Source of the DNA: Candidatus Tayloriibacteriota bacterium
GTDB taxonomy: Bacteria; Patescibacteriota; Minisyncoccia; Phycocordibacterales; PALSA-1337
Assembly (NCBI GenBank): GCA_037129895.1
Contig: JBAXUB010000006.1
Location: forward strand, 3,580 to 67,579
Reading direction: 5' to 3'
Length of the DNA: 64,000 bases
The stretch's first letter is position 1, and the number at the start of each line of letters is the position of its first letter. The translations under genes and the position numbers were made by a program. The notes beneath the pieces are model-generated. The model was given only the letters and a program-made list of their open reading frames with translations, was not told the DNA's origin and did no database searches. Positions 2,998 through 62,600 of this stretch are shown piece by piece.

Positions 2998-4491
2998 ATG
3001 GCATCACTAGAAGAGCTCCGTAAAATCAGATTAGATAAATTGGTTTTATTACAGAAAGCTGGAATAAATCCTTATCCAGCGAAAGTGCCTAGAACTTTTT
3101 GTTTGGCTAATGCCCGCAAGAATTTTGAAGAATATGAAAAGAGCGCAAAACCAGTATCACTGTGTGGTCGTATAATGGCGATCAGGGGACAAGGTGCGAT
3201 CTTATTCGTAGTACTAGATGATGGTAAGTCTACATTTCAGTCAGTTATAAAGAAAGACGTATTGGATGCGGCTTCATTCGATCTATTCTCACAAACAGTA
3301 GATATTGGAGATATCCTGAGTGTGACTGGAACATTTTTCAAGACGAATAGGGGAGAGCAAAGCATCATGGTCAATTCATGGGTGATGGCTGCCAAGTCTT
3401 TGTTACCTTTACCAGAAAAGTGGCATGGATTAACTGATCCTGACGAGAAATTTCGCAAGAGATATCTCGATTTCATCATGGATCCAGAAACTCGCGATAT
3501 TTTCTACAAAAAAGCACGATTTTGGGAAGTTGTACGAGCGATCATGAAAGAGGAAGGTTTCCTAGAAGTGGAAACACCAACATTGGAAACGACGACAGGT
3601 GGTGCAGAAGCGACCCCATTCAAGACTCATCACAATGACTATGATCTAGATGTATATCTACGTATTTCTGTAGGCGAATTGTGGCAGAAGAGACTTATGG
3701 CTGCCGGTTTTCCGAAAACTTTTGAGATTGGTCGTGTATATAGGAATGAAGGATCGAGCCCAGAACATCTTCAGGAATTTACAAACCTCGAGTTTTACTG
3801 GTCATATGCTGATTACAATGATGGTATGGAACTGGTAATGAAAATGTACAGGAGGATTGCAGAGGAAGTTTTCGGTACGACCAAATTTACTTACAAGGAA
3901 CATACATTCGACCTAGCAGATGAGTGGAAAAAGATTGACTATGCTGGAGAGATTTTGAAACAAACAGAGATCGATATAGCAAAAGCTAGTGATGCTGATA
4001 TAAAGAGCAAGTTGGACAGCTTAAAAGTGAAATATGACGGAACTAATAGAGAGAGACTGGTTGATACGTTATGGAAATATTGCAGGAAGAATATCGCTGG
4101 TCCAGCATTCTTAGTGAACCATCCAGTTCTCGTTGCACCACTTGCAAAGTCTGTTGTCGGTTCTGATTCTGCTTCTGCTCCTGCAGAGGTCAGACCTATG
4201 CAGACTGTGCAGATGTTCCAGCCGATCATAGCCGGCTCCGAGATCGGTCGTGGATATTCCGAGCTCAATGACCCTATAGATCAACGCGAGAGATTCGAGG
4301 CTCAGCAGAAACTATTAGAAGGTGGTGATACTGAGGCGATGATGTCTGATTGGGAATTCGTAGAGATGCTAGAACACGGAATGCCACCAACATGTGGATA
4401 TGGTTTCGGAGAACGACTTTTCGCTGTACTTGCAAATAAACCTATGAGGGAAGTGACAATGTTTCCTTTGATGAAAGAAAAGAAGGGCTAG
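2998..4491 (+). CDS. lysS: lysyl-tRNA synthetase, class II
   Basis: OB-fold anticodon-binding N-terminus; motif 2 FEIGRVYRNEG; motif 3 GYGFGERL. Carries an in-frame REP-derived insertion at 4183-4203. Confidence 0.92.
   Translation: MASLEELRKIRLDKLVLLQKAGINPYPAKVPRTFCLANARKNFEEYEKSAKPVSLCGRIMAIRGQGAILFVVLDDGKSTFQSVIKKDVLDAASFDLFSQTVDIGDILSVTGTFFKTNRGEQSIMVNSWVMAAKSLLPLPEKWHGLTDPDEKFRKRYLDFIMDPETRDIFYKKARFWEVVRAIMKEEGFLEVETPTLETTTGGAEATPFKTHHNDYDLDVYLRISVGELWQKRLMAAGFPKTFEIGRVYRNEGSSPEHLQEFTNLEFYWSYADYNDGMELVMKMYRRIAEEVFGTTKFTYKEHTFDLADEWKKIDYAGEILKQTEIDIAKASDADIKSKLDSLKVKYDGTNRERLVDTLWKYCRKNIAGPAFLVNHPVLVAPLAKSVVGSDSASAPAEVRPMQTVQMFQPIIAGSEIGRGYSELNDPIDQRERFEAQQKLLEGGDTEAMMSDWEFVEMLEHGMPPTCGYGFGERLFAVLANKPMREVTMFPLMKEKKG
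4183..4203 (+). repeat. REP-like palindromic element copy embedded in-frame within lysS
   Basis: gcagaggtcagacctatgcag matches 19 of 21 nt of the intergenic REP copy at 26041-26061 (gtagaggtcagacctatgcac), and its flanks resemble copy 4504-4536. It encodes AEVRPMQ. Confidence 0.7.
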
Positions 4492-5133
4492 CTAACCGCA
4501 GATGGCTGTAGAGGTCTGACCTATGCAGTGTGCAGGTTTATGTAGAGGTCTGACCTCTACACCCTTTACATCTGTTAATATCACTGATTGGGGTCTTATA
4601 ACACCATTGAAATCTCTCAGGCTGGAATACTCATAGTTCATGGCGAAATCGACGCGTGCCTCAAGGGTGTTTTTAAGCGGATCAATTAGATCGCACGGAT
4701 TCAAATGAATGTAATTGATCAGAGATTCTATGTACGTTCCATCGTAAACAGGCTTTTCTTTGTATGCGCCCTGCCATATAGTGCCCGAATGCGAATATTT
4801 TTTATTATAATATGACGAATATCCTGTCATCAATTTGTGTATAAATATAGTCATATTATCTCTAGGACGAGACTTACCTGGGGTGCGTTTTTTGAGCGCA
4901 ATATGAATATGATTGGGCATGAGGCAATAAGCAACGATGTCAACTAATATCTTTTTGCGATCGATGGCGAATACATTTTCTGAAAGTCTGGATAAAATGA
5001 ATGGCTCATCATTATTGGCTATGTATAGCAGTTTAACCATTCGAATATAATCTGAGTTATCAAGAAAAATATTTGCTTTATGAGCCCCACGATTGTATAC
5101 GTGGTGGTATATTTCGTCATTTTGTATTTGCAT
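4492..5133 (-). CDS. REP-associated tyrosine transposase (RAYT, IS200/IS605 TnpA-like Y1 HUH transposase)
   Basis: HUH motif LMPNHIHIAL. The N-terminal signature is YHVYNRG...IFLDNSDY. The C-terminal WQGAYKEK...YIHLNPCDL region matches the RAYT catalytic-Tyr region. Start taken at ATG 5131-5133 (MQIQNDEIYHH), since the track start at 5205 is TTG. The last ~24 codons are read through the REP copies, so the true C-terminus is uncertain. Confidence 0.75.
   Translation of the reverse strand: MQIQNDEIYHHVYNRGAHKANIFLDNSDYIRMVKLLYIANNDEPFILSRLSENVFAIDRKKILVDIVAYCLMPNHIHIALKKRTPGKSRPRDNMTIFIHKLMTGYSSYYNKKYSHSGTIWQGAYKEKPVYDGTYIESLINYIHLNPCDLIDPLKNTLEARVDFAMNYEYSSLRDFNGVIRPQSVILTDVKGVEVRPLHKPAHCIGQTSTAICG
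4504..4564. repeat. two adjacent REP copies at the 3' end of the RAYT gene
   Basis: The two copies are ggctGTAGAGGTCTGACCtatgcag and tGTAGAGGTCTGACCTCTACaccc. Each has 9-bp inverted arms around a central T/A. Confidence 0.8.
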
Positions 5134-5211
5134 ATCGCTATCATACTTGATAAGCGATAAAGAAATGATTAAGAAAAGATAAAATTTTGATAAATATTGT
5201 CTCAAATTTCA

Positions 5212-5253
5212 GCTCTGCAGAGTGTAGAGGTCTGACCTCTACACCTCTACATC
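5212..5253. repeat. REP copy at the 5' side of the RAYT gene
   Basis: gctctgcagagtGTAGAGGTCTGACCTCTACacctctacatc. Together with 4504-4564 it brackets the transposase, giving a REPtron arrangement. Confidence 0.8.
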
Positions 5254-26004: not shown

Positions 26005-26065
26005 TGTAGAGGTCAGACCTCTGCATGGCAACATCGGCTGTAGAGGTCAGACCTATGCACGGCTG
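26005..26065. repeat. two REP copies in the corA / ctpA divergent intergenic region
   Basis: tGTAGAGGTCAGACCTCTGCAtgg and ggctGTAGAGGTCAGACCtatgcacggctg. Same palindrome family as at the RAYT gene. Confidence 0.8.
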
Positions 26066-29003: not shown

Positions 29004-29027
29004 TATGCAGAGGTCAGACCTCTACAC
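29004..29027. repeat. REP copy
   Basis: tatGCAGAGGTCAGACCTCTACac. Confidence 0.8.
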
Positions 29028-40567: not shown

Positions 40568-43500
40568 CTATTCTCCTTTCATGAAACCGAAAGTCGTATC
40601 AAGGTTTTTGAAGATAAGGTCAACAACGGATCCTTTTGGTTTTTGAGTCAATACAGTATATGGTTCTGATTTGGTAGCATTGCCTGCAGCATCACCTGAT
40701 TCAACGACGATCTTGTATATAGTGCCTGGTTTTAAAAGTGTTGTAACGATGATATGATCTCGAACCAAGTTTGTCTCAGTAGGAGTTGATTGGTCTAGAT
40801 TATCCGATGTACCCTGAGCGAACAGCACCCTAGATGTAGCTGGTTTGTCTGACTTCCATGAGATTATAGACTGTGTTGTCTCTATTCGATCTGGGATGAT
40901 AGATGATGTAATTCGCACGTTTGATATCTTGGGTGCCTCTGTTGACACTGTCGTACTGAAAGGAATTATAGATGGATTCGATGTATTACCATCATTATCT
41001 ATGGCATTCACTGTAAAGGTGTATCCCGTTGAGTAGTTTAGATTATTTGCTGTATATGTGTGCTCTTTGACAAAGCTTGGATCATCTACTTTGGTGATTT
41101 TTCCGGTTGAATTATCTTTGATTTCGATCTGACTCTTTGTTGGCAGGTCTGTCTTCCATGTTAGTGTCGCTTCACTTTCTAGTATCTTTTCAAATTTGAT
41201 ATTTGAAATATCTGGTACCAATGAAGTCGTAGTAAATGTTCGATCACTAGATAGTGAGGCTGTTCCGACCAAGCTCTGTGATCTTACTTGGTAATGATAC
41301 GTTGTGGATGGTGCTAGGTTTTGTAGTATGACCTCGTGATCAGAAGTCTTTTCATCCGGGAATCCTGCACTGATCGAGTATGAACTATCATTCTTGTAAT
41401 CAGAGGCTTTGGAATATCCCACTAAACTATTTGAAGCCTTGTCTGTGACCCAGCGTATCGTAGCTGTGTTGGCTGAGGACTCTACTTGTATGTCGGTACC
41501 GGAAATAACAGGAGAAGCAACTGCTTTTGAAGCAAGTGCTGACAATGAGGACGCTAGTTGGGATTCAGAAATATTTGATAGATTTGAGTTCTTGATCAGT
41601 CCAAATAGCATTGCCTTGATGATCGAGGCAGATGCACTCAAAGCCTTATTGTATGCACTAGTCTCCTCTGCCGTCATACTCGAGGTATCAACATCTATAG
41701 GTATGTCCTGAGACACAACACCATTGGCCAACGTTGTGAATGTAGTATCCACCCCTTCGCCTACGTTGTCATAAATATCAGTCACATAAGCCTTGAAATG
41801 ATATGTTGTAAGAGGGGTGAGGTTGTTTAGAGAGATCTGATGGGTGAGGCCGTAGACACCAGTGCGTTTTGTTTCTGATCCATATGATGTTGTCTTGCCG
41901 TACTTTACTTTTCCTGTAGCTATCTTGGAAGATTTGAATGAAATCGTTGCGGAATTACCTCCAATAGAGTCGACAACAACATTAGAAATGACAGGTACAG
42001 TCAAATCTCTATTATCCAATGCCCCCCCTCCTCCTCCACCTACATATTCAGTTTTTGTAACATATACAACGGTTGGAGCAAGTGTAGTGAATGAATATTT
42101 CTCGCCCGCCCTATCATCGATTGCTATGTTTTCTGAACGATCTCTCGAACGGACTACGAAGTAGTATGTCGTACTAGAAACAAGTCCAGTGATAGACATT
42201 GAGTGTTGAGTCTTGAACATATCCGGCTCGTTTTCTCGTATTCCTAGATCCTTCGCTATTCCCCATTCAACCTGAGAATTGGATTGTTCATCTGTAGTCC
42301 AGGTGATCGTAGCACTGCTTTCACCGATGATTGGTGTTTTTACATCACTGATGACTGGAGGGACGATGTCTCGAGTAGTGTTTACTACATAGTAATTGAT
42401 CACTCCGTCTACTACATTCTTGTCTGTAGCAACATTGCCTTCTTCATCTATTGATTTTACGTAGTAATAGTAGTTAGTTCCTTTGACTAGACCAGTTAGA
42501 GTAATACTGTGACTGGTAGTTGTGGCTACTGAAGTGACGACCTCTGGACTAGTTAAGTTACTATTTGTTGAATAGTATACTGATGAATCTGATGCTAAGT
42601 TAGTGTGCCATGTTACGGTAGCTTCAGTGTCTTGAGTGTCGGATGTTAATATTTGGGATATACTCGGTCCTGGGTTTGTGATGAATGTATATGTTTCAGC
42701 TGCCTGTTGATTGATTTGCGCTTGGGAGTCTTCTGATGTGACTAGGAAGTAGTACTGTGTACCTGGTGTGAGGTTGGAGAGGACGACAGAGTGGGAGGTT
42801 GTCATGTTGGAGACGCCAACAGATTTCGTATAGTTCGTCTTATTTGTACCAGGATATGATGTAACTGCTTCGTAGAAGACTGTTGAATCAGAAACAGTAT
42901 TGGTATTCCATGTGATCGTAGCACCCGTTGTTGTTATTGAACTAGTTGCCACGTTATCAAAAAGTATTCCATTCGTTGTAAATGTATACATCTCTCCTGT
43001 ATTATCACCAATCCCAACATTGCCTGACTTGTCTTCTGACAGTACTCTGTAGAAATATTGGGTATTCTTTTGCAGATTTGAAAGTGTAACGTAGTGGTCG
43101 GTGCTTAATCCGGTAGTCTTTGAGGTCGAGGCAGTAGGATCTTTCATTATTCCCCATTCAACCTGAGAATTGGATTGTTTATCTGTAGTCCAGGTGATCG
43201 TCGCATCGCTATCACTTATAAGTGCCGTCTCTACACCACTGATTATCGGTTTTGAAGTATCTTCAGAAGTATTGAGTGTATAATAGTTAATCGTACCGTT
43301 CACTACGTTCATGTCGGTTGCCACATTACCGTCTGCGTCAACGGATTTTACATAGTAATAGTATCTTGTACCTTTCACTAAGTTTGTCAATTTGATTCGA
43401 TGATTGGTCGATCTGGAACCAGAACCGATAATCTCCACAGAATTAGACATGTCTGTTGAAGACGAATACCATACAGATGAGTCGGCATTTGTCGATGTGT

Positions 43501-46500
43501 TCCAAGTGATAGCTGCTTCAGTGTCAAAGATTTCTGCTGTTGTTACATTAGATATTCTCGGACCTATTTCGGTTCTAAATGTATATGAGGCAGAAGATGA
43601 TTGGCCGGAATTGTTCGATGCGTCTTGTGACTCGACTAGGAAATAGTACTGGGTATCTGGTATCAATCGATCTAGAATCACTGTATGAGAGGTGAGCATC
43701 GATGGAACTCCAACTGATGCCGAATATGCACTTTTATCAGTCCCAGGATATGTAGTCGAAGCAACATAATAAATGATCGAGTTTGCATACTTGTTTGTGA
43801 TCCAGGATATATAGGCACCAGATGTTGTTGTCGTACCTATAGTTACTGTGCTCAATGATGGTAATGCTATATCACTACCACCTGTACCATCTGGACGATC
43901 GGCTGTCGATGCTGGCGAAAATAGTGATATGTTCCCATCGTTATCTTCTATTGACACTTTATATGAATATGTAGAGCTCTCAGATAGTCCGCTATCTACA
44001 ATGTAGTTCAGCATTCTATTGGTTATCGTTGTAAGTAAGCTAAAACCTCCACCGTTTACAGAACGATATACGTTATATCTCCTGAAACCTTGAGGTGGTA
44101 CAGGAGAAACAGCCCAGGCATAGAATTCACGCCATTCTAGTGTGTTAGGGTTAGATATGTCTTGGAAGAAATTACTCGCAGTTGGTATTGGCGGAGTGAC
44201 AGAGACGATTGATGATGAATTGTTTTTAGCATCTTTGAATACTGCGTATATAGTGTCACCAGAAATGACCGAGGATGTCGTTGTGGAATTGGCGTATGCG
44301 TAGTAGTTAGGTACGTCAGAAAGATCTGCTGTCTTCCCTACCTTCATCACTAATGCGGTATCGTCTGTGGCTGATAGAGTTATGAGTGCTGGTGATTGAG
44401 AAGCATCGATACTAATAGGCAAAGCACCTAGACTTGGAGTTTTTGTGTCCAAGACAAAAGCAGCAGATGTAGATGATGCTGTATTATTTGCCGCCTCTCT
44501 ATCATCCACAATTACCTTTATCTTTGCATTGGCTGCATATTGACCCGTCAATTGGTTAATGATCGTTGAAGTGGCTGTAAATGTTCTATATGTAGTAGTT
44601 GATACAGCCTTGTCACTGTAACTACTTGCTTGCATAGTCGAAGTCGTCGAAATCAAGGTATATGATGAACCTCCATCGAGAGAATAGTAGAAAGATGGTC
44701 TCAAATAGCCAGGCATCGTTGTCCCAGTATCAGTATCTGGATCACGTATGGAATAGTTGATGGTGATCGTTCCATCACTATTCTGCACAGCACCAACGCC
44801 GCCAGCTCCAGTAGTCGGGTAGTTAGGATCAAAGCCTGGAGATGCGTTTACCACATATGTTAATGTGGCACTATTCAATGTTGGAGTGGATGCTCCATCT
44901 GATATTAGGTATGCTTTGTATTGAACCCATTGGTCGTTCACGCCATCTGTCTGAGCTGCTGGTGCAGCTTCAGTTCCGTTAAGGTTTGTGTAATATGTCG
45001 TGGTTGCACCGGTTGGACCAATAAAGTTTGACCACGTGCCTGGTACACCAGCATTGTCTGGTGCAGTCCTGATCTGAAATTTAATACTCGAGCTTGATGT
45101 TGTAGCTTGTGACCATGATATGCCAGACAAGAGATTTGCTGAGCTTGATGTGTTATATGAAGATGATGTGAGTGTTGTCGACGTAGCGTATGTGGAATAT
45201 GTGATCGTGACATCATTAAGTGTTGGTGTTACTGCTGTATCTGAGGTCGAAAGTGTAGCTTGGTATTGTACATATCTATGACCATTAGTGACGCAGCTGC
45301 CAGTGCTTAGTGCCGCACCACTTGTGATGTTGGAACAACTTGCGTATGCCGTTGCACCTGCCATTGATGAGCTATTGGAAGATCTAGCTTTTATGCTTAC
45401 TGTCTGAGCACCAGTCTTCGTCCAGGATAATGTGCCCCAGTTGGCTACACTCTTACCTGCGTCTATGACGCCTGAAGTGTATGTGCCGGAAGAGGCGTAG
45501 ACTCTGGATGTGGCATTAAATCTATAGAACGCTTTTCCACCAAATCCGGGAGATGTATCACCCTGAAGGATATACAATCTAGTTCCGTTACTGTCACTGA
45601 CAACTTCTATCTGACTACCAGCGCCCAAGCCAGTAGGTAGACTTGTCAGTGTTGTCCACGAATTGCCCGTTATCGAATACCTATAGAAACCTGTACTGGA
45701 ATTACCAGGTGATGCATAAATTTCATCAGCTGAACCATCACGAAACATGATTGACCCATACATATCATTGCCTCCTGGTGCCGGAAATATCTCAGGAACA
45801 TTAGTGAGTGGTGTCCATGTATTGGACGCAATAGAATATTTCTTCAAAGATTGAGTATCGCCACCAAGTAGCATATATATCGTGTCATCAGTCCCATTCC
45901 TTATCATCCTCCCACTTTTACCCAAACTGACTGGAGACATATTACTCCAGGAATTTCCAGATATCGAATACCTAGCCAGATTACCTATTGTTGGTCTGTA
46001 AATATAATTTTCACCAGGACCTCTAATTCCATTTCCGTAAGCCTTAATCCAGCCGTCTGTCGGCGGTGTTAGCAGGGTCCAAACATTAGTTGATATTTGA
46101 TATTTGTACATCTGGTCATTTGACTCATAAATATAATCTTCTCCGTCTACATGCAGTAATACATCCGTAGGATTAGACTGAAGAGAATTTACTGCATCTG
46201 CCAACCAAGTCCATGTATTCGATGATATTGTGTAAACGAGCAAAGAAGCACCGGCTCTCAGATAAATTTTACCAGTAGTTATGTCTATAAAGGATCTTGA
46301 GCCCAAAAAATTAGTCGTTGGTATTGTTGCCAAAGCCGTCCATGTATTATCTGCGATGGTAAATTTATAGAATGTAGTTCCGTTTCCGCCCGAAAGCACG
46401 TATAACTCGTTATTATATTTATGCAGAGATGAACCCATCGAAATATTTACCGGTGAACTTGTAAGAGTTGTCCATGTGCCAACATTAGAGATACTACTCG

Positions 46501-46975
46501 TAAGTTGAATACTCGTAGCTGCAGCTGTTCCAGTAGTCTCTGTAGATGAGAAAACTTTACCGGTAAGATTAAAACCAGTTGAAGTCGTCCCATCGTCGGT
46601 CATAATATTTGTCGTTGTTGATGAAGCTATCTGTAAATCTGCTCCAGCATTAACGGCTAGTGTTGCTGCATCTTTTGCAGAATATTTAGTCCAGTTTGAT
46701 TGATTGGATGTATGATTGGGGTATGTTCCACCATCTAGTCCGCCGGACCATGTTGCTTGTGACCATGTATATGTGGCAGCTAGAGAAGTTTGATAGTCAA
46801 AATATATACTAGATCCTACAATAGATAATAGAAGTAAGAGTGCAATACCCCTTCTACCTACGATAAAATACGCCAAGTACACACATTTTCCGAGGAAATT
46901 TAACTCGTCAGTCTTCAGGACTTTTCTTATACTGTAAAAACGTTTGCGTCGCCGACGTTGTGTAAGCATTTGCAT
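40568..46975 (-). CDS. giant cell-surface protein (2135 aa): N-terminal anchor, beta-propeller-like region, multiple FN3-like repeats
   Basis: N-terminal Arg-rich segment plus a TM/signal anchor. Kelch/propeller-like repeats (...NTWT.L...P). At least 8 FN3/purple-acid-phosphatase-N-like modules of the form (SATITWTTD.QSNSQVEWG...T..H.V.L..L...T.Y.Y.V). It is co-oriented with the ABC transporter genes and has a shared terminator. Confidence 0.7.
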   Translation of the reverse strand: MQMLTQRRRRKRFYSIRKVLKTDELNFLGKCVYLAYFIVGRRGIALLLLLSIVGSSIYFDYQTSLAATYTWSQATWSGGLDGGTYPNHTSNQSNWTKYSAKDAATLAVNAGADLQIASSTTTNIMTDDGTTSTGFNLTGKVFSSTETTGTAAATSIQLTSSISNVGTWTTLTSSPVNISMGSSLHKYNNELYVLSGGNGTTFYKFTIADNTWTALATIPTTNFLGSRSFIDITTGKIYLRAGASLLVYTISSNTWTWLADAVNSLQSNPTDVLLHVDGEDYIYESNDQMYKYQISTNVWTLLTPPTDGWIKAYGNGIRGPGENYIYRPTIGNLARYSISGNSWSNMSPVSLGKSGRMIRNGTDDTIYMLLGGDTQSLKKYSIASNTWTPLTNVPEIFPAPGGNDMYGSIMFRDGSADEIYASPGNSSTGFYRYSITGNSWTTLTSLPTGLGAGSQIEVVSDSNGTRLYILQGDTSPGFGGKAFYRFNATSRVYASSGTYTSGVIDAGKSVANWGTLSWTKTGAQTVSIKARSSNSSSMAGATAYASCSNITSGAALSTGSCVTNGHRYVQYQATLSTSDTAVTPTLNDVTITYSTYATSTTLTSSSYNTSSSANLLSGISWSQATTSSSSIKFQIRTAPDNAGVPGTWSNFIGPTGATTTYYTNLNGTEAAPAAQTDGVNDQWVQYKAYLISDGASTPTLNSATLTYVVNASPGFDPNYPTTGAGGVGAVQNSDGTITINYSIRDPDTDTGTTMPGYLRPSFYYSLDGGSSYTLISTTSTMQASSYSDKAVSTTTYRTFTATSTIINQLTGQYAANAKIKVIVDDREAANNTASSTSAAFVLDTKTPSLGALPISIDASQSPALITLSATDDTALVMKVGKTADLSDVPNYYAYANSTTTSSVISGDTIYAVFKDAKNNSSSIVSVTPPIPTASNFFQDISNPNTLEWREFYAWAVSPVPPQGFRRYNVYRSVNGGGFSLLTTITNRMLNYIVDSGLSESSTYSYKVSIEDNDGNISLFSPASTADRPDGTGGSDIALPSLSTVTIGTTTTSGAYISWITNKYANSIIYYVASTTYPGTDKSAYSASVGVPSMLTSHTVILDRLIPDTQYYFLVESQDASNNSGQSSSASYTFRTEIGPRISNVTTAEIFDTEAAITWNTSTNADSSVWYSSSTDMSNSVEIIGSGSRSTNHRIKLTNLVKGTRYYYYVKSVDADGNVATDMNVVNGTINYYTLNTSEDTSKPIISGVETALISDSDATITWTTDKQSNSQVEWGIMKDPTASTSKTTGLSTDHYVTLSNLQKNTQYFYRVLSEDKSGNVGIGDNTGEMYTFTTNGILFDNVATSSITTTGATITWNTNTVSDSTVFYEAVTSYPGTNKTNYTKSVGVSNMTTSHSVVLSNLTPGTQYYFLVTSEDSQAQINQQAAETYTFITNPGPSISQILTSDTQDTEATVTWHTNLASDSSVYYSTNSNLTSPEVVTSVATTTSHSITLTGLVKGTNYYYYVKSIDEEGNVATDKNVVDGVINYYVVNTTRDIVPPVISDVKTPIIGESSATITWTTDEQSNSQVEWGIAKDLGIRENEPDMFKTQHSMSITGLVSSTTYYFVVRSRDRSENIAIDDRAGEKYSFTTLAPTVVYVTKTEYVGGGGGGALDNRDLTVPVISNVVVDSIGGNSATISFKSSKIATGKVKYGKTTSYGSETKRTGVYGLTHQISLNNLTPLTTYHFKAYVTDIYDNVGEGVDTTFTTLANGVVSQDIPIDVDTSSMTAEETSAYNKALSASASIIKAMLFGLIKNSNLSNISESQLASSLSALASKAVASPVISGTDIQVESSANTATIRWVTDKASNSLVGYSKASDYKNDSSYSISAGFPDEKTSDHEVILQNLAPSTTYHYQVRSQSLVGTASLSSDRTFTTTSLVPDISNIKFEKILESEATLTWKTDLPTKSQIEIKDNSTGKITKVDDPSFVKEHTYTANNLNYSTGYTFTVNAIDNDGNTSNPSIIPFSTTVSTEAPKISNVRITSSIIPDRIETTQSIISWKSDKPATSRVLFAQGTSDNLDQSTPTETNLVRDHIIVTTLLKPGTIYKIVVESGDAAGNATKSEPYTVLTQKPKGSVVDLIFKNLDTTFGFMKGE
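42261..43235 (-). repeat. near-identical ~80-bp in-frame direct repeats (at ~42258-42340 and ~43149-43230; 891 bp = 297 codons) inside the FN3 giant gene
   Basis: ttattccccattcaacctgagaattggattgtt(c/t)atctgtagtccaggtgatcgt... occurs twice and corresponds to duplicated FN3-pair modules (EWGI.KD...). Confidence 0.7.
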
Positions 46976-52685: not shown

Positions 52686-52985
52686 ATGAATATACTGTTT
52701 ATTCTGTTTCTGGTCGTAGGTGTATCCATCCTTGTCGTAGCTCTAGTCCATGAATTGTCGACACTAGGTGAATCGAGAATGGAGACATGGAGGTTGGTTG
52801 GTCTCGGTCTTTCCATCACATTGTTTGCGTTCACGATGTTCTATGATGTGGTTAGGGAGATCACATCGTGTGTCCTTCTGACAGCATTTGGCTACTACGT
52901 CGTTGTAAAAGTCGTCGATTTGGCGGAGCCAGGACTAAAGACATTTGTTTGTGATCTCATGAGAAAAGCAGCGAGAGACGAATGA
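52686..52985 (+). CDS. small membrane protein (2 TM)
   Basis: 99 aa with two hydrophobic helices. It is followed by a hairpin (tAGCCAGtctctcgtaggCTGGCTatttt) at ~53040-53066. Confidence 0.4.
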   Translation: MNILFILFLVVGVSILVVALVHELSTLGESRMETWRLVGLGLSITLFAFTMFYDVVREITSCVLLTAFGYYVVVKVVDLAEPGLKTFVCDLMRKAARDE

Positions 52986-53068
52986 GGTCGCTCACCGACA
53001 TCAGTCTATTCCGTATCACTTCATCATCCCCTGTCGCCCTTAGCCAGTCTCTCGTAGGCTGGCTATTT

Positions 53069-53099
53069 TGTAGATGTAGAGGTCTGACCTCTACAGATC
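53069..53099. repeat. REP copy overlapping the stop codon of the cohesin-like gene
   Basis: tgtagatGTAGAGGTCTGACCTCTACagatc. The TGA stop of the 53098-54297 gene lies at its 3' edge. Confidence 0.8.
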
Positions 53100-54297
53100 A
53101 GATCTTCTTTATATCATTGATTCCCTTCTCGATCTTCTTCTCGATAGACGTGAGCTCTGCATCGAGATCTTTCTTTGTACCCTCTTCTCGCTTCTTTGCA
53201 CCAGATATTGATCCTGACTTTATCAGATATTTCACGTAGCTATTCAAACCGGTCTTCAAAGTATCAAAGCCCTTATGTAATGTCTCTTTGGCCTCTTTCA
53301 CTTCTTTGAACTTCTTGTGTCGTAAACGTAGGTACATAGACAAGATGATGAATAGAGCGATGATTAGTAGGATCGATAAAATCGTCAGTAGTAGAACTAT
53401 TACCTTCAATGATATAGACGTTCCGCCAATATTCAGAGTCGATCCATTGACTACTTCTACATATGATATCTGTGATGACGGACCCATAGTACCGTTAGGC
53501 AAGATATTGATTGCCCATATCTTGTAATAACCGGAGCGTACAGAATATTTGAATGTGTAAGCGAAACTTCCATCAGGATTAACAGTTATCTGTGTAATGT
53601 CTGGATTGTATTTACCTTTTTGAATATAAACTTGCATCGATACATTCGGCATACTATTACCAGTAAATGATAACGTGTCACCTTCATTCAATGTATCCGG
53701 AATATTCGACAATATAGGTGCTGTAGGAATCAGGTTTGCCGATGAGGCTAGTTTCGTAGTTGTAGCCAGGGCGTCCGTCGCGGGTACGATTTCCTCTACT
53801 GGCACTGATGCCGCTTCTCCGATATTTACTGATAAAGCCTTTGATACAGATAACACATCAGTACCTAGTCCATCATTTGCAAGAACTGAACCATTTTGCA
53901 GGGTGACCATCGTCTGACCTGGTTTCTTGGCTCTGAATGTGACACTCACGATAGCTCCGTTAGCACCGTTCCAACCTGGTGAAGGTCGTCCTCCAGAAAG
54001 GTGCAGGTTACCTGATGAGTTCGAATACTTCGGCTCCTCAGCCCAGATGGAAAATATTGATTGAGAATATCCAACACTTTGAATAGATAATAGACTCGTG
54101 TCGTACTTCATATCTAGAGAAGCGGCATTGACCGCCATGCTCTCTGAGTCTAGGTCGATCGTAACTGTGAATGTTTGGCCAGCTCGTACTGACTCACTCT
54201 CTGGCACCATATATAGTATCGCGGCATTCGTAAAACATGGGAATGCGAAAATAGATATTGCAGTAACTATCGGGAATAGAAAATAGTTCTTTTTCAT
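53098..54297 (-). CDS. membrane-anchored cohesin-like surface protein 1
   Basis: Signal peptide; a ~130-aa domain (GQTFTVTIDLDSESMAVNAASLDMKYDTSLLSIQSV...FSIW...LHLSGGRP.G...GAIVSVTF) fitting the cohesin beta-sandwich pattern; an Ig-like segment; a TM helix; and an ~80-aa basic coiled-coil cytoplasmic tail. Confidence 0.55.
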   Translation of the reverse strand: MKKNYFLFPIVTAISIFAFPCFTNAAILYMVPESESVRAGQTFTVTIDLDSESMAVNAASLDMKYDTSLLSIQSVGYSQSIFSIWAEEPKYSNSSGNLHLSGGRPSPGWNGANGAIVSVTFRAKKPGQTMVTLQNGSVLANDGLGTDVLSVSKALSVNIGEAASVPVEEIVPATDALATTTKLASSANLIPTAPILSNIPDTLNEGDTLSFTGNSMPNVSMQVYIQKGKYNPDITQITVNPDGSFAYTFKYSVRSGYYKIWAINILPNGTMGPSSQISYVEVVNGSTLNIGGTSISLKVIVLLLTILSILLIIALFIILSMYLRLRHKKFKEVKEAKETLHKGFDTLKTGLNSYVKYLIKSGSISGAKKREEGTKKDLDAELTSIEKKIEKGINDIKKI

Positions 54298-55300: not shown

Positions 55301-56674
55301 TTACCTAGTTCCAGTCCACCAGTACATCATTATAGAAAAATCTTGGAGGTTGACTCGACCGTCACCATTCAGGTCTGCACAGGGATTTGTTGGTTTAGTG
55401 TTACCCCAGAAGTACATCAGGATTGAAAAGTCAGTAATATTCACTTTGCCATCATTATTGATGTCGGCATGTGCACTACAAGCCGTAGCTTTCGGTGCAG
55501 TATTCAGGACATCTTTGTCGCCGACTTGAAAACCAAGTAATGATGAAAATGCCGAAGCAATATTCTTGTTGGCTATAGTCTGTGACTTCGTCGTATGTTC
55601 ACCTTTTTCTAGTAATGAAGAATTCAATGTATATATCCAACGGCCATATTTATCTGCTATTGTTTGATCGAGGATTTCCTTTTCTGAATTGATCATGATA
55701 TTTACTGAAGATATCGGGTATGAATATCCAAAGAACTTGATCGTGTTACCAATCTTGACGACGGATTTGTCAGAGGTGATAGTCGGTGCAACGATGATGT
55801 CCGATGTTGTGACAGATTGACCAGCGATTGCGTTAACTGTAAAACCAAAAGTCGGTGATTTGTAGTTGTCCTTGTCCAGGGCATATATTCCGAATGAGTA
55901 AATTCCAGAGGATACTGGGAATTCAGCCGCAAAATCACCGTTACTATCAGCTATGACCTGCTTTCCTATCGAGGCATCTTTCAGTATCACGATCTTGGCT
56001 CCAGGGTAAGCCAGACCTTTCAAAGAAATCTTTGTACTTGCTGCAGGACTAGGACTTCCGGCTCCACCTCCTCCTCCGCTACTGCCACCGCCTGTTGGAG
56101 GTGTCGGTGGTACTACCGGTGGTGTTACTGGTGTAGTAGCTACTGGTGTTGCAGATACTTCAGTCGAAGAAGCCACCACCATACCGAATGCATCTTGAGC
56201 TTGAATTATAAAAAAATATGGCTGACTGTTTGTAAGTGAGCTTCTCGTAGCACTGGTAACATTACCTACAGAAGTGAATGTATATGGTCCGCCAGAAGTA
56301 TTGGATTGACCGACGAGGTATCCACCAATATTGAATCCGAGGAATCCTTCTGAAGCTGTCCAACTAAGATCGACTTTCGCGTCTCCTGCTGATGCGGTGA
56401 CGACCGGTGTTGTGACTTTAGGAAAATATAGGAATCCAGAGTTCAACATGAATGTTGTCGCAGTCGAAGAACCGATAGCTATCTGTGACATACTGCCAGT
56501 CAAGCCAAAACTAGCTGATGTCATCTCCCTCACGCTGTTAAATGAAGAGTCGATAACTTTGTAGCTCGCTGAGCCAGGGTCAGTAGCGTTTACTATCAAA
56601 ATCGGCAAAACCAGTGCTACTGTCAGCAAAGAAAATCGTAATAATGTCGTTTTTGCATATTTACTCATAGTCAT
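55301..56674 (-). CDS. secreted multidomain protein with C-terminal type-I dockerin
   Basis: Signal peptide, FN3-like domain, PT/G-rich linker (PPTPPTGGGSSGGGGGAGSP), Ig-like domain. The C-terminal duplicated 22-residue calcium-binding segments DINNDGKVNITDFSILMYFWGN and DLNGDGRVNLQDFSIMMYWWTG are joined by an 8-residue linker, which is the canonical dockerin architecture. Confidence 0.72.
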   Translation of the reverse strand: MTMSKYAKTTLLRFSLLTVALVLPILIVNATDPGSASYKVIDSSFNSVREMTSASFGLTGSMSQIAIGSSTATTFMLNSGFLYFPKVTTPVVTASAGDAKVDLSWTASEGFLGFNIGGYLVGQSNTSGGPYTFTSVGNVTSATRSSLTNSQPYFFIIQAQDAFGMVVASSTEVSATPVATTPVTPPVVPPTPPTGGGSSGGGGGAGSPSPAASTKISLKGLAYPGAKIVILKDASIGKQVIADSNGDFAAEFPVSSGIYSFGIYALDKDNYKSPTFGFTVNAIAGQSVTTSDIIVAPTITSDKSVVKIGNTIKFFGYSYPISSVNIMINSEKEILDQTIADKYGRWIYTLNSSLLEKGEHTTKSQTIANKNIASAFSSLLGFQVGDKDVLNTAPKATACSAHADINNDGKVNITDFSILMYFWGNTKPTNPCADLNGDGRVNLQDFSIMMYWWTGTR

Positions 56675-59600
56675 ATTACAGGCGCTGGTTCTTCAGTTGC
56701 GGGTGGTGGAACTGGTGTAGCTGGTGGCTCTACAGCTGGCGGTGCAGTAACAGGCGTTGATTCTGATGGTGTTTCTGCCGGCGATATTACTGGTGGTTCA
56801 GTTGATGCAGTCGATGTGGCTGGTGGTTCAGCCTGAAGTGGCGGTTCTATTATAGGAGTAGTTGTAGCGGATTCGATTGAAATAGGTGTCGAGGTGGCGT
56901 GAGGTACTATTTCTGGTAGTGTAACTTGGACAGTGGAAGAAGCTATAATCTCTGGTGTTGATGTCGCCGTCGTAGACCCTGTAGTTGTCGGTGTTGTAGA
57001 TGAGGTCGGTTCAATAACAGTTTGTGGAATGACCGGACTAACTGAATTTGCTACCATCATCTTCTTCAAGGCTTCCTCGTCTATACATGTTGATCCGAGA
57101 CAAATGGTTTTTGAATTTACCAATTCAACGTCAGCTTGTTTGGCAGTAATCTTGTTCAATATCCAATTACCCGTTGACTCGATAGCCTTCTCAATAGCTG
57201 ATACGAGTTGACTGATGAATGTCGGAGACGTTACGATGGCCGTCACAGTGGAGCTGGCAGTTTTTGAAGCGGATGCAGCGGTGATTTCCTCCATAGTAGA
57301 AGTACTAAATATATCCTTAACAACGTTCATTGCAGACAACTCCTTTACAGAGTTAACCAATGCCGCCAAGATCGGCCGGTCTGACAATGTCAGCATGCCA
57401 GATGAGTCCACACCGACGGCCTCTGGGATACTCGCTTGAACATTTTGTGCGGAGAAGCCAGCATAAGTCGTCAACGTGTCGTATCCCGTCACATCTTTCC
57501 ATTTATATAAGATAGGATTCAATGTCAAAACATCTGAAAGACCTCGATTGAAATTACCCTGAATATTCTTCAACCTCTCATCTGATGAGACTGTGATGTT
57601 ACCTGATGCATCCGAGACGAGGGTACCAGTAGTGAACGTATCATTTCGCATGGTGCCACTGACGTGAAGTTTGGCGGTTGGAGATATCGTGCCTATGCCG
57701 ACGTTGCCAGATACGGATAGATTAGAAGCAAAGTTATATTCATTGATTGTATATTGTGTGCCGGCGTCCGTAATGGTTGCACTGCTAGGCTGAAGAGTTG
57801 TAGCTGGACCCGAAGTCCAAGTACCTGTATGGCGAATTTCAGATGATATACCGCAGATCCAGCTCGTTGCGAACCGAACCCAGACAGAAAATGTTTGATT
57901 CGTTACACCTGATCCGCTTGTATTGACGACTACAACATTGTCCACGAACCTTATTCCACTACTACCATTGTATGTATCTAGACCAACAATCATCGATTCG
58001 ATACCACTTGCAGTGTTACGCCCCTGCACGTTGATATGTTGTCTGGTTGGAATACCCAAACTACTAGCGGCATATAGGTCCACATCCAGTGTGGACCCAA
58101 TCCAAGCCCCGTTGTTGACAAATGTACCGATCTTCATCCAGTGACCACCATCTGTTCCACACTCATTGCTCGTACCAAATACTCCACCGTATATATAGCG
58201 CATGCCAATAGAGTTAAGTGCAGACATTGTCCCTCTGACATCGAGATTGTATCCAGGAAGAGTTGTTCCTATACCAATGGAGCCATTTTCTTTGATGTAT
58301 AAAGCACTATTTTGAGTAGCAGAACCGTTAGTTACGGAGAATGAAAGAGCACCTTTAGGAGCACCATTGGTATGATCAACGAATACACCAGTAATTGCTG
58401 ATGAAATATTACCCCCAGCAGATCTAAATTCATATGCGCCAAAGTTACCGTTTGTTGGATTATCCTGTTGAATATCGAGAGTAACTGCTTTCCATGCCGA
58501 TGATAAAGTCGTGTTGGTTGTCGATCCGGAAAATATAGACGACACTGCACTATCAGCGGCTCCACCAGTCAGTGGAGTATATGCATGGATTCTTACTCCA
58601 GCATACATTGAGTTGTAGATATCCAAGATAGAGATAGGATTCTCCGTCCCAATCCCCACATTTCCGTTATCTAACACTGTGACTTTAGGTGCATTTGTAG
58701 AGTCTGCAATCTGAAATGCTCGACCTGTAGCGATACCTGTACCCGTTACTGAAAGTTTAGCTGACGGAGACGTTGACCCTATCCCGACGTTGCCAGCGTT
58801 TATTACTAAACTAGCTCCCGCCAATGTTGATGCGCTTGAAATGGTACCGCCCAATCCGACGTTTCCACCGCTCTGCAGAACCATCCTCAATGGCTCGCCT
58901 CCGGCAGCTTGACCACCGTAAATCTCAAATTGCCCACCTGTTCCATCGTAGACACTTCGAATTGTACCGAGTGGTAAATAACTTCCCGATGGATAACCAA
59001 AGAAAGAAAAAGAACCCAAAACATCATTAGTTGAAATATTGGTAGGTGAAGCGACTGTTCCTCGAGCACGATAAAAGCCTACTGTCGGTCTGTCACTGGC
59101 AGTTCCATCTGCAAAATTGATTTTTAACCCATCACCGTATCCCAAAGCCGCACCGCTGTTAGATGCAATATTTAGAATAGTTCCGGGATTCTCCGTCCCA
59201 ATCCCCACATTCCCATTTGCAGCTATTGTGAACATTCTAGCGTTCGAGGAGGAGGAAACAGTAAAAGCATTTGCTGATCCTGCCGTTCCATATATATCAA
59301 GTTTGGCGCTCGGAGTTGTGGTGCCGATACCAACGTTACCAGAACTCGTAATTCTCATTTTTTCTGTTAGAGTAGTAGAAGCACTAGCGCCTGTATTAGT
59401 TAAAAAAGTCAATATTCCACTATAACCAGCACCAGAATACAATTGCTCTATTCTAGATGGCTCCCAGTTATCTGACTCCCTCTTAAAACTAAAATAGGAT
59501 CCGAGTCCTGCTGTTGTACCAATCGTAGGTTCTAATCTTAAATTTCCTTTAACATAAAGTTTTTCAGTAGGATTCATTGTACCAATCCCGACGTTGCCAT

Positions 59601-62600
59601 TCGCCAATACCGTAAACACCGAAGAAGTCGCAAATCCCGCCGAAGTTGTTGAAGCGATACTGAATAGTGGCAGAGTTGATCCGGGGGCTTGTTGTATTGA
59701 GAGTCTAGCAAAAGCTGTAGAAGTACCGAGTGAAGCATTACCAGATGCAGAAATATTGAATACATCTCCAGCGACGCCACCGTTGGATGTTACGTTCAAA
59801 TAATTGGCTGTCTGGGACAATATACCATTTAGACTTAGGATTGATCTTGCAGCAAAGCGTGTACCCAACATTAGTTGAGCGTTGAGAGCAAGATCTGTAC
59901 CTATACTAGCTGCGTCATTGACGAACATATCAGTATAATATGTGTCAGAGATTTGGAATTCTGTTTCAAACCAATATCTATAACCAGCATCCAATGTTCC
60001 TGACATACCCATTACTTTATAGTACCTATATGCTGTAGTGTTCTGACTAAGGGTTGTTATTATATACGTACCACCATTCGTACAACTTCCATCGTTTAAT
60101 TGTGTTGTAGTTCCTATGTTCGTCCAATTTGAGTTATCATTACTTCCTTGCCATTGCCATAATCCTTCGGGACATGTAAAACTCCAGTATGTTTTTGCTG
60201 AATCTATTATTTTCTTTGAGCCAAAATCAAAAGTGATAGATTGTGAACCGTCCAATACCACACCTCCAGTTAGAGTGATACCCGTTGAATTTGTACTACC
60301 ATCTACAAGAGTGGGTATTGTGTACTGATGCCATGAACTACCAGTTTCAGACATAGATATGATACTAGTTCTATTTCCAGTACTATATATATTCGTATAT
60401 GTCGTTGTGGCTGTACTGCTTCCGATATGGAGACGAGCTATAGGGGCGTTCTGTTGTATTCCCGTTAACTTAGCAGCCGTCACGACCATTGCGTCACCAA
60501 GACTTGTACTTGCTGTATTGATACTTAGTAGATTAGCCGATTGCCCAATAGCACCCGTTATACTCATCGTCGTCTGTAGTGGAACTAGGGAGTTTAGTGT
60601 AATGGAACCAAACCCAGCATTACCCGTAGCTGATAGACTACCGACGATAGATGTGTTCCCCGTTACTGATAGTGCGTCATTTCCGTTTGATATCTTGAAC
60701 TCGATTTCTTCCCATCTTCGTCCGTTTGCATCAAGTGTTCCAGAGACACTCACAAGTTTATAATAGCGATACCCAATAGAGTTCGTACTGAGAGTTATCA
60801 TAATATACTCACCTGTTCCACCTACCCCTGAAGATAGTTGAGATGTCCCACCAATATTAGTCCATGTTGAATTATCATTTGAACCTTGCCATTGCCAGAT
60901 ACCCTCTGATTCTCCAAAGTTAAATGTATTCTTTGCAGCAGTTACAATTTTTGGTGACCCAAAATCAAATGTTACAAATTGAGAACCGTTTAAAGTCGTT
61001 CCACCTGCAAGTTGAATTGCGTTTGTATTGTTGTTTGCAAGAACTCCATCTATAATACTATTCAATGTGTAGAAGTGCCATGTTCCACCACCCTCTGATG
61101 TACCAACATAGGTTCTTCTATCACCTGTTCCACCGCTATTACTATAGGACGGCGTTTGATTATCTACAGCAATCAATGCAGCTGATGTAGTAGTACCAAC
61201 ACCAGTAAGTCCGCTATCTAGAATAGTAAACTTTGCTGCATAAGTGCTATCTGTAACTTGAAAGGCCTTTCCTGTTGTGATGCCAGAACCTGAGACTGTA
61301 AGCCTAGCTAGGGGACTTGTCGTCCCAATACCGACGTTGCCGCTATCTAGAATAGTAAACTTTGCTACACCATCACTGTCTGTTGTCTGAAAAGTAGCCC
61401 CTGTTGTTGTACCAGAACCATTAACTGACAATTTAGCTGCTGGTGTAGCGTATGGGCCAATTCCGACATTTCCATTAGATTTGAGAATAGAAAAGCGTAA
61501 AGTCCCACTAAGAGAAGTGAAGTCATTTGGAGAAGTGTAATAACGTAAATTACCACCACTTTGAACTCCAAGGGCGGCATGCGCAGCCACTTGATTTTCA
61601 ATAAAAGTAATAAATCCAGAGGTGTTTATCGCTGGCCTAAGTGTCAATGATCCAGTTGCGCCTCCACCAGCACCAAGCCCTGCACCAAGAGCTGCTGTAG
61701 AAAGAGCTCCTCCGACAGTTAGATTGTTCCCTACCACAAAACTGTCAGGCGTTTTTAATCCGATTGCATCAGCATATAAAGCTGCATTTACTACTCCTGA
61801 GTTATAAAAATTTATTCTCGGTACACCACCACTACTAGGTAGAAACTCTATGTAGTCACCAGTTGCATCGTTTATTTGCATTGGTCCAAGAATGCTCAGT
61901 GTTTTTCCAGATATAAAACTATTAGTCCCTATTGCAGTACTTCCAGCCAAATATGTCTGTCCAGAAACTGATAGGTTTGTTGTAGAAGCATTACCTAGTG
62001 AAGATTGACCGGTAACTGATAGCGTTCCTGTGGCTGTAATGTTTGCAGCTGTTAGGTTGCCTGAGAAGTAGCCGTCTCCTACTACGGTGAGCTTGGATGA
62101 TGGGGTTGTGGAGCCGATACCGACGTTGCCGCTCGTATCAACTGTCAGTCGCCTCGTAATAGTTGAAGCCCCATCCCAAGTATAAATACCAAAATTATCT
62201 GTACCATTAGGCATCCCAAAACCCCATTGCGGAGTAGAGGCAGTTACAGCCGTAGCACTTTGTATTAGAAAGGCGGCATCGTGCGTATTATTATTCCTCA
62301 TAACCCTTGCCCAAGAGTTTCCAATAGAGTTCCAACCAATATCCAAAGGTACACCCGGACTCGTCGTCCCAATTCCCACATTCCCTCCATTGTAGTAAAC
62401 ACTGGAACTATTCGTCGTCCACTGACTAGATACTTTGTTGTTCCAGTCTGTGGTAGATGCAGATAGAGGGATGATATAGCTAGGATTGAGTGAGAGTACT
62501 CCAGTAGATGTAGCATACTGTAGACCTGTAGCTGTAGTAGACAGGGCGTTTCTGGAACGTACGTCTGTATAGTAGAGGTTAGTACCTTCTGCTAGAGCTG

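Follow-up and report, generated by a model that had tools for sequence, protein, structure and literature searches.

The stretch of DNA analysed here, called the window in the following, comprises 64,000 nt from a Candidatus Tayloriibacteriota bacterium (positions 3,580 to 67,579 of the forward strand of contig JBAXUB010000006.1, assembly GCA_037129895.1), and its lysS gene, which encodes a lysyl-tRNA synthetase (LysRS), carries a 21-nt unit of a repetitive extragenic palindromic (REP) sequence in frame at positions 4183-4203. Whether these 21 bases came into lysS by overwrite or by insertion, they are very probably of REP origin. On the evidence of the sequence we favour, with a probability of about 0.55, a REP-templated overwrite of existing codons over a clean insertion, because the flank of the unit is ancestral, the encoded peptide AEVRPMQ lies over an old loop, and the extra codons of the loop form a separate slippage tract.

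The gene lysS (2998-4491, plus strand) encodes an intact class II LysRS of 497 aa, as judged from matches to Pfam, NCBIfam and PDB. The protein comprises the class II catalytic domain (Pfam tRNA-synt_2, 1e-63) and an OB anticodon-binding domain; it passed the cut-off of the NCBIfam model PRK00484 (487.8 bits, cut-off 468) and scored below that of TIGR00499 (418.3 bits, cut-off 427.6). Its closest PDB entry is 3A74, the LysRS of Geobacillus stearothermophilus (E = 6e-100, residues 6-495), and it is 100% identical to the NCBI protein MEI6304813.1 of Candidatus Taylorbacteria. An alignment of 120 orthologues showed that the loop between PLAK and TVQM, where the unit resides, varies from 6 to 21 residues and is the sole length-variable site and indel hotspot of the catalytic domain. 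The original prediction, which was made from the sequence of the window, described a REP-derived segment tolerated in frame within an intact LysRS; this was borne out by the PRK00484 match, by the retention of the unit in three lineages (see below) and by its position in a variable loop.

The unit, GCAGAGGTCAGACCTATGCAG, occupies codons 396-402 on the plus strand and, as had been predicted, begins on a codon boundary of the lysS frame counted from 2998 (the difference 4183-2998 is divisible by 3) and encodes AEVRPMQ. It is identical in 19 of 21 positions to each of the REPs at 4508-4528 and 26040-26060. The 19/21 identity with the latter had been recognised before, but at 26041-26061, coordinates that are off by one and, taken as written, give an identity of only 3/21. 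Coincidence had been considered unlikely, and the background levels support that judgement: no match with at most 3 mismatches was obtained in 100 dinucleotide-preserving shuffles, and the next-best REP match elsewhere in lysS reaches only 13/21. Furthermore, the imperfect CCTATGC arm of the unit recurs in the REPs at 4508 and 26040, and the unit is identical in 20 of 21 positions to a REP unit inside the MurE gene of RAAC4_OD1. The same 21-mer is present in lysS of two related lineages, L001 (Logan SRR26784071) and L199 (ENA GROS21); since these assemblies are independent, an assembly artefact can be excluded. The first REP 3' of lysS in L199 (GCAGAGGTCTGACCTATGCAG) is identical in 20 of 21 positions to the in-gene unit.

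The core palindrome of the family is GTAGAGGTCWGACCTCTAC, and the window contains 8 units of it, 7 of them extragenic or in the 3' tail of the gene for a REP-associated tyrosine transposase (RAYT), and the eighth in lysS. A 15-mer search of the window gave 17 strand-hits against 0.13 expected, and a 21-mer search allowing at most 3 mismatches gave 7 hits against 0 expected. Like the other copies, the lysS unit forms a predicted stem-loop, GCAGAGGT-CAG-ACCTATGC, extended by flanking C-G and T-A pairs and with one internal mismatch; its predicted hairpin energy is -10.6 kcal/mol, and those of the extragenic copies range from -5.6 to -14.8 kcal/mol. The unit is thus a palindrome as expected of a REP, but it lies inside a coding sequence rather than in an extragenic location, and neither of its strands has a GTAG head, the corresponding bases being GCAG (plus strand) and GCAT (minus strand). 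On one strand or the other, GTAG is present in 7/7 of the extragenic copies of the window and in the RAYT-flanking copies of L001 and L199. The lysS unit is therefore likely not a RAYT substrate, because it lacks the head that all the other copies have, and by analogy with studied RAYTs it is probably no longer mobile. Judging from its sequence, the most fitting term for it is an exonised REP derivative, not an intact GTAG REP.

The time at which the unit entered lysS can be bracketed by comparison with relatives. L001 and L199 have about 94% LysRS identity to the window and share with it the identical 21-mer as well as the RAYT gene and the REP family surrounding that gene. The unit is absent from lysS of L002, L004, L006, L008 and L010, whose LysRS proteins are at most 85% identical. 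Since the 21-mer is found in the window and in the two lineages at about 94% and is absent at 85% or below, its entry is placed by these alignments after the split from the relatives of at most 85% identity and before the window lineage, L001 and L199 diverged. About 35% of the codons for the same residue differ synonymously between the window and L001 and L199. In the comparison of the window with L001, 0 of the 7 REP codons differ synonymously as against 36% of codons genome-locally, a difference of marginal significance (p about 0.044).

The sequence to the right of the unit does not belong to the REP. The four codons ACT GTG CAG ATG (4204-4215, plus strand) encode TVQM, a conserved ancestral coding sequence: among the 120 orthologues, including those with the shortest loops, the residues V, M, F, Q and P to the right of the loop show no variation and T and Q almost none, and L001 and L199 have the synonymous codons ACC GTC there. 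Since TVQM is conserved in 120/120 orthologues, the right flank is not a REP flank. The right flank had been read as a mirror of the REP flank; the two sequences are indeed alike (CTATGCAG(AC)TGTGCAG in lysS and CTATGCAGTGTGCAG at 4522-4536), but the flank in lysS consists of the conserved TVQM codons. The 7-nt TGTGCAG following CTATGCAG is common to the lysS site (4197-4212) and the REP at 4508 (4522-4536) and is not shared by L001 and L199; this may be due to chance, or to an exchange from lysS into the intergenic REP in the window lineage.

To the left of the unit is a Ser/Ala-rich tract, SDSASAP, encoded by TCT GAT TCT GCT TCT GCT CCT (4162-4182, plus strand), and in comparison with the nearest orthologues these seven codons are the extra ones. 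Tandem Repeats Finder reported TTCTGC in four copies at 4161-4184, a stretch that takes in the tract. The tract is also the sole part of the loop that differs among the REP-bearing lineages, reading GSDSASAP in the window and SSSASA and SSAAAA in the other two. Its repeat pattern indicates that the extra length of the loop comes from a separate expansion or slippage of a TCTGCT hexamer. The possibility that the tract is a decayed second REP unit was rejected, as its local alignment to the REP variants is at background level (p about 0.25). The loop of the window is 11 residues longer than that of 3A74, which is consistent with the segment of about 12 aa that had been described as extra relative to the Escherichia coli enzyme; however, the REP unit contributes only 7 residues, and these lie over an existing loop. 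Alignment of orthologues had been proposed as a check, with the expectation that the extra segment would be missing where the REP is missing. The 21-mer is indeed absent from the relatives of at most 85% identity, and the RAYTs examined among these (L002, L004) have different REPs, but the extra codons are those of the Ser/Ala tract and not of the REP.

In a MAFFT alignment AEVRPMQ is placed opposite a pre-existing A-x-G-[KR]-P-x-Q loop of the nearest relatives, and in a neighbour-joining tree for which the loop had been masked, the window lineage falls within a group of orthologues with SV[IV]DAxG[KR]PxQ loops. At the nucleotide level, the corresponding segment of L010, GCG CAG GGT AGA TCT ACG CAG, is identical to the lysS unit in 15 of 21 positions. 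We compared the possible placements of the gap against three relatives, P0003, P0004 and P0010. When AEVRPMQ was treated as the extra segment, the score was the lowest of all placements for P0003 and P0004 and the BLOSUM score tied for second-lowest for P0010 (BLOSUM 6, 3 and 13, respectively; 10-15 of 33 nt identical). When the Ser/Ala tract was treated as the extra segment, the BLOSUM scores (16-21) were the best or close to it, and the nucleotide identity, 16-22 of 33 nt, was the highest for all three.

These results suggest the following course of events. The seven ancestral codons would have been approximately GCG CAG GGT AGR CCT ACG CAG, encoding A-Q-G-R/K-P-T-Q, and would already have been partly REP-like. 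A neighbouring REP about 320 nt downstream, most likely the doublet at 4508-4562, may have served as the donor, either by template switching during replication or by short-tract gene conversion, with the exchange anchored by microhomology such as AGACCTA and GCAG. In a templated patch of this kind length and frame would be kept automatically, so that the preservation of the frame, the start on a codon boundary and the match at A, R/K, P and Q would be explained together. At about 5 of the approximately 7 positions at which the ancestor and the REP differ, lysS now has the REP base, and at 0 has it changed away; we estimate the probability that ordinary substitution would give changes all toward the REP at about 1e-4 to 1e-5. 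The unit would now be a tolerated passenger, presumably neutral for the enzyme.

That the present 21-mer arose by point substitutions in a loop already resembling a REP, i.e. by chance or convergence, is one alternative; only about five substitutions separate it from an ancestor like the loops of L010 or L006. This explanation is effectively refuted by the direction of the changes just described, by the family-specific imperfect arm, by the 20/21 identity to REP units elsewhere, and by the shuffles, in which 0 matches are expected. A more serious competitor, although we consider it less likely than the overwrite, is a simple insertion, in which one 21-nt REP unit was placed, by the RAYT or otherwise, just upstream of TVQM and the old 11-residue loop decayed into the Ser/Ala tract. 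In its favour, in-frame units and doublets occur in related metagenome-assembled genomes (MAGs), in LigA as a clean insertion and also in GatB, TopA, MurE, MurB, TsaD and HolB, and the loop of the window exceeds the 11-residue ancestral type by exactly 7 residues. However, an insertion would require 8 of the 11 old loop residues to have been exchanged, against a change of only about 15% in the remainder of the protein; it leaves unexplained the agreement of the REP peptide, in residues (A, R/K, P and Q) and in their spacing, with the ancestral motif, which we estimate to have a probability of about 1e-3 to 1e-4; and it corresponds to the worst or near-worst alignment scores. The claim of the original prediction that the segment is a frame-preserving REP insertion is thus replaced here by the templated overwrite as the favoured explanation.

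Two further explanations concern the history and the role of the loop. The whole xxG[KR]PxQ loop type could descend from an old REP insertion that decayed in most lineages, while the window lineage kept it or re-homogenised it through conversion. The conservation of the REP core in distant Paceibacteria, the 13-15/21 identity of the loops of relatives to the REP, and a perfect 8-bp hairpin of L006 at the corresponding position would all fit this history. Nevertheless we regard it as improbable: this loop type also occurs in more distant orthologues (DKNGKIQN, DDKGKIKP) that have no nucleotide likeness to the REP, 13/21 is background, and 8-bp hairpins occur about once per 2.4 kb. Moreover, to retain an identity of 19-21/21 through saturated synonymous divergence it would need conversion, whereby it collapses into the templated overwrite. 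Still more doubtful is a functional co-option, in which the hairpin or the peptide has been kept for RAYT binding, mRNA stability, translational pausing or a surface feature of LysRS. The identity of the 21-mer in three lineages, as against 36% synonymous differences elsewhere (p about 0.044), and a hairpin as stable as those of the extragenic copies are what one would expect of it; but the significance is marginal and stems from what is in essence a single independent comparison, no other orthologue has the unit, its GTAG head is missing, and the occurrence of related in-gene units in each of the three frames, and in proteins unrelated to one another, speaks against a function of the peptide.

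Several points weigh against the templated overwrite itself. Clean REP insertions exist in related genomes, and since the LigA doublet corresponds to a gap of 12-15 aa in homologues, simple insertion is a proven route in this group. The arithmetic of the loop, 11 + 7 = 18 residues, fits an insertion equally well, and the ancestral loop is reconstructed from relatives of at most 85% identity; a search of metagenome contigs for intermediate lineages found none nearer than 83% identity. An AlphaFold2 model of LysRS built from 55 close homologues had a mean pLDDT (predicted local distance difference test score) of 68.7, with conserved core segments below 50 too, and was too poor to place the loop on the structure. 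Lastly, we know of no experiment showing template switching between a coding loop and a REP.

Four related possibilities for lysS were considered and rejected. A role of the REP as a recombination breakpoint at which the 3' end of lysS was swapped was discarded, as segment-wise identities to six relatives revealed no change of affinity. The loops of L002 and L004 are not copies of the differing REPs of those genomes, as the best identity is only 13/21, the same as the background elsewhere in the gene. The hairpin in the lysS loop of P0008 (L006:11164-11184), a perfect 8-bp stem of the form TGCGCAGG-gtagg-CCTGCGCA, was likewise dismissed as a further in-gene palindromic element, for it has no second copy in 11.8 kb and similar hairpins occur about once per 2.4 kb (about 5 per 12 kb). 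The long loop of P0120 (..DTDVRATQ) is not a decayed REP; it matches at 11/21 nt and its locus contains no REPs.

To the 3' side, the lysS gene is directly followed by a convergent gene on the minus strand, and the two stop codons abut (4491/4492). This open reading frame (ORF; 4492-5205, probable start ATG at 5133) encodes a RAYT-like IS200-type tyrosine transposase with the HUH motif NHIHI and the motif YIHLNP; alignments by tblastn to its relatives start at ORF residues 22-27. It passed the Pfam cut-off of Y1_Tnp (27.6 bits, cut-off 23), and its best and only NCBIfam match is NF047646 REP_Tyr_transpos (E = 1.1e-9), with 38.3 bits, below the cut-off of 80. By these scores the protein appears to be a distant relative of the curated REP_Tyr_transpos model. 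A phmmer search with it against PDB found no relevant relative. As REPs lie on both sides of the ORF, the locus is a REPtron: the doublet at 4508-4562 (units 4508-4528 and 4542-4562) begins 17 nt past the lysS stop, and the opposite flank holds a single unit (5224-5244), upstream of the RAYT gene. The RAYT gene is likewise bracketed by REPs in L001 and L199. The C-terminus of the RAYT is itself REP-encoded, its last approximately 23 codons (4492-4562, minus strand) reading through the doublet (..GVEVRPLHKPAHCIGQTSTAICG*).

The gene order lysS-RAYT-mraZ is kept in the window, L001, L199, L002/3 and L004/5. The LysRS proteins of L002/3 and L004/5 are 83-85% identical to that of the window, but their RAYTs are only about 60% identical, and the REPs around them are different: GTATAGGTKSAACCT... 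in L002 (11487-11531 and 12205-12245) and GGGAGGTTTAACCTAACGAGA in L004 (11461-11505 and 12218-12262). On the other hand, the REP core of the window is also found in more distant genomes whose RAYTs are just 32-35% identical. Judged from these comparisons, the REP sequence does not appear to follow RAYT similarity in a simple manner. Further along the locus, serine recombinase (Resolvase) genes are located downstream of a mur ligase gene in L002 (17519-19222), L004 (17502-19861) and L199 (11248-12152), and a REP_ORF2-G2P gene stands beside the serine recombinase gene of one relative; this gene content points to an integrated element close to the division and cell wall (dcw) cluster in L002, L004 and L199.

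To see how widely the palindrome is distributed, species-representative genomes were scanned for the REP core; the matches listed are a subset of the total, and among them multi-copy matches were found only in Patescibacteria MAGs. The same core occurs in frame in at least 7 other Pfam-confirmed housekeeping genes of Paceibacteria MAGs. In the MAG Chersky_89 these are the genes for GatB (L027:5181-5233), TopA (L052:1642-1691), LigA (L084:3302-3342) and HolB (L020:3974-3992), and 7 of the 12 REP units in the loci fetched from it are in genes; a Kaiserbacteria MAG has units in MurB (L030:1076) and TsaD (L095:5119), and RAAC4_OD1 has one in a MurE-type ligase (L072:2861-2904) with the identical peptide AEVRPMQ. 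In addition, in a Taylorbacteria MAG the TruB ORF (L046:3396-4148, minus strand) ends inside a REP unit (..VEVRPLL*). The LigA doublet forms an insertion of 12-15 residues relative to two other Patescibacteria LigA proteins. The palindrome offers three stop-free frames, encoding AEVRP[LM]Q, RGQ/LTSA and QRSDLC, respectively; frame 1 needs a central A, which otherwise gives TGA, and frame 2 needs a GCAG head, which otherwise gives TAG, and all in-gene units comply with this. From this pattern we would tentatively suggest, with rather less than even confidence, that the conserved Paceibacteria REP palindrome GCAGAGGTCWGACCTCTGC behaves like the palindromic elements of Rickettsia, repeatedly colonising essential genes in three frames, and that it reached lysS by templated repair from the adjacent REPtron.

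Single perfect GCAGAGGTCWGACCTCTGC palindromes were also encountered in MAGs of Chloroflexota and Limnocylindrales. They were not counted as REPs, as there is one per locus with long conserved flanks and a T-run, which resembles a terminator. The context is ...cccgggagcacgggtcgtgccggg... followed by the T-run in L015, L028, L029, L034, L037, L055, L058, L061, L071, L074, L087, L093, L106, L114, L115 and L117. From its context the palindrome seems to be the terminator of a conserved gene, possibly one for an RNA.

The remaining REP copies of the window are dispersed. A doublet (26006-26060, units 26006-26026 and 26040-26060) is situated between a corA-like gene and an S41 peptidase gene, a single intergenic unit is located at 29007-29027, and another (53076-53096) lies just downstream of the stop codon of a cohesin-domain gene (53098-54297, minus strand). 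An 85-aa ORF across the last of these (52982-53239) belongs to no family and overlaps a real convergent gene, and was judged to be spurious. The window also contains two very large ORFs on the minus strand, 40568-46975 and 56671-63870 (2135 and 2399 aa, respectively).

The findings have implications for the biology of these bacteria and for the reading of their proteins. REP/RAYT systems exist in the ultra-small genomes of Patescibacteria, and their palindromes are predicted to be translated inside essential enzymes, much like the Rickettsia palindromic elements. This suggests that compact genomes with little intergenic space push REPs into tolerant protein loops. If the overwrite in lysS is true, REPs would act as donors of templated multi-nucleotide change in essential coding sequences, and not through insertions alone. 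The REP-encoded peptides AEVRP[LM]Q, RGQTSA and QRSDLC constitute a signature, which can explain odd loop insertions in alignments and structure models of the candidate phyla radiation (CPR). The lysS case gains somewhat in interest from the fact that one REP family has repeatedly been exonised in essential genes of CPR bacteria, and from its own likely origin by templated overwrite.

Among known processes, the proposed overwrite comes nearest to the template-switch or quasipalindrome-templated mutagenesis associated with Ripley and with Lovett and co-workers, which reportedly produces clustered simultaneous changes that match a nearby donor and keep length and frame. The difference is that the donor proposed here, if the mechanism is as we infer, is a REP at an ectopic site about 320 nt distant and not the opposite arm of the same quasipalindrome.

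With respect to the element, the event is real but of an already known type. A catalogue of intragenic REPs of the GTAG/CGTC type, some of them in tRNA synthetase genes, was published by Di Nocera, De Gregorio and Rocco in 2013 (BMC Genomics 14:522, PMC3733652); these are palindromes of 20-40 bp, single or dimeric, lying wholly within ORFs of known proteins. Their hosts include tRNA synthetase genes of Xanthomonas oryzae, Erythrobacter litoralis and Sphingopyxis alaskensis and also truB, the families flank RAYT genes (REPtrons), and siting in loops or linkers was suggested to be tolerated (PMC3733652). In view of this catalogue and of the at least 7 other housekeeping genes in related MAGs, the description of the lysS unit as a rare example is overstated. 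Like the catalogued REPs, it is a short palindrome of a RAYT-flanking family inside a tRNA synthetase gene, and the TruB ORF of Taylorbacteria that ends in a REP echoes the truB-REP association of other phyla (PMC3733652); unlike them, it is hosted by a member of the Patescibacteria/CPR, has lost the GTAG head, lies over existing codons and is about 320 nt from the REPtron. A full-text search of a literature library found no paper joining Patescibacteria or CPR with RAYT or REPIN.

The Rickettsia palindromic elements (RPEs; Ogata et al. 2000, Science 290:347), according to the accounts of them in PMC3733652 and PMC3184786, are in-frame palindromes in many housekeeping genes of a reduced genome, and their length is given as about 105-146 bp (PMC3184786), so that tens of residues are encoded. 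Paceibacteria as a group resemble this description, with REPs in GatB, TopA, LigA, MurE, MurB, TsaD, HolB and LysRS, and the lysS unit is an in-frame repeat in a functional gene that is absent wherever the DNA of orthologues of at most 85% identity was read. It differs from RPEs, as so described, in being only 21 nt long (7 aa), with doublets of about 45 nt, against 100-150 bp, and in having a cognate RAYT adjacent; a net insertion of extra residues, although possible, is less likely for it, as the alignment sets the REP peptide over pre-existing residues.

Finally, the locus can be compared with the REPIN-RAYT systems (Bertels and Rainey 2011, PLoS Genet, PMC3116915). REPINs are extragenic inverted doublets, whereas the doublets found here are tight, with spacers of 5-13 nt, and the lysS unit is a singlet within a gene. 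The organisation nevertheless resembles that of a REPIN-RAYT system: the window has a single RAYT gene flanked by its own REPs, the REP sequence differs by RAYT lineage (window, L002 and L004), and the order lysS-RAYT-mraZ in five lineages suggests vertical inheritance of the locus.

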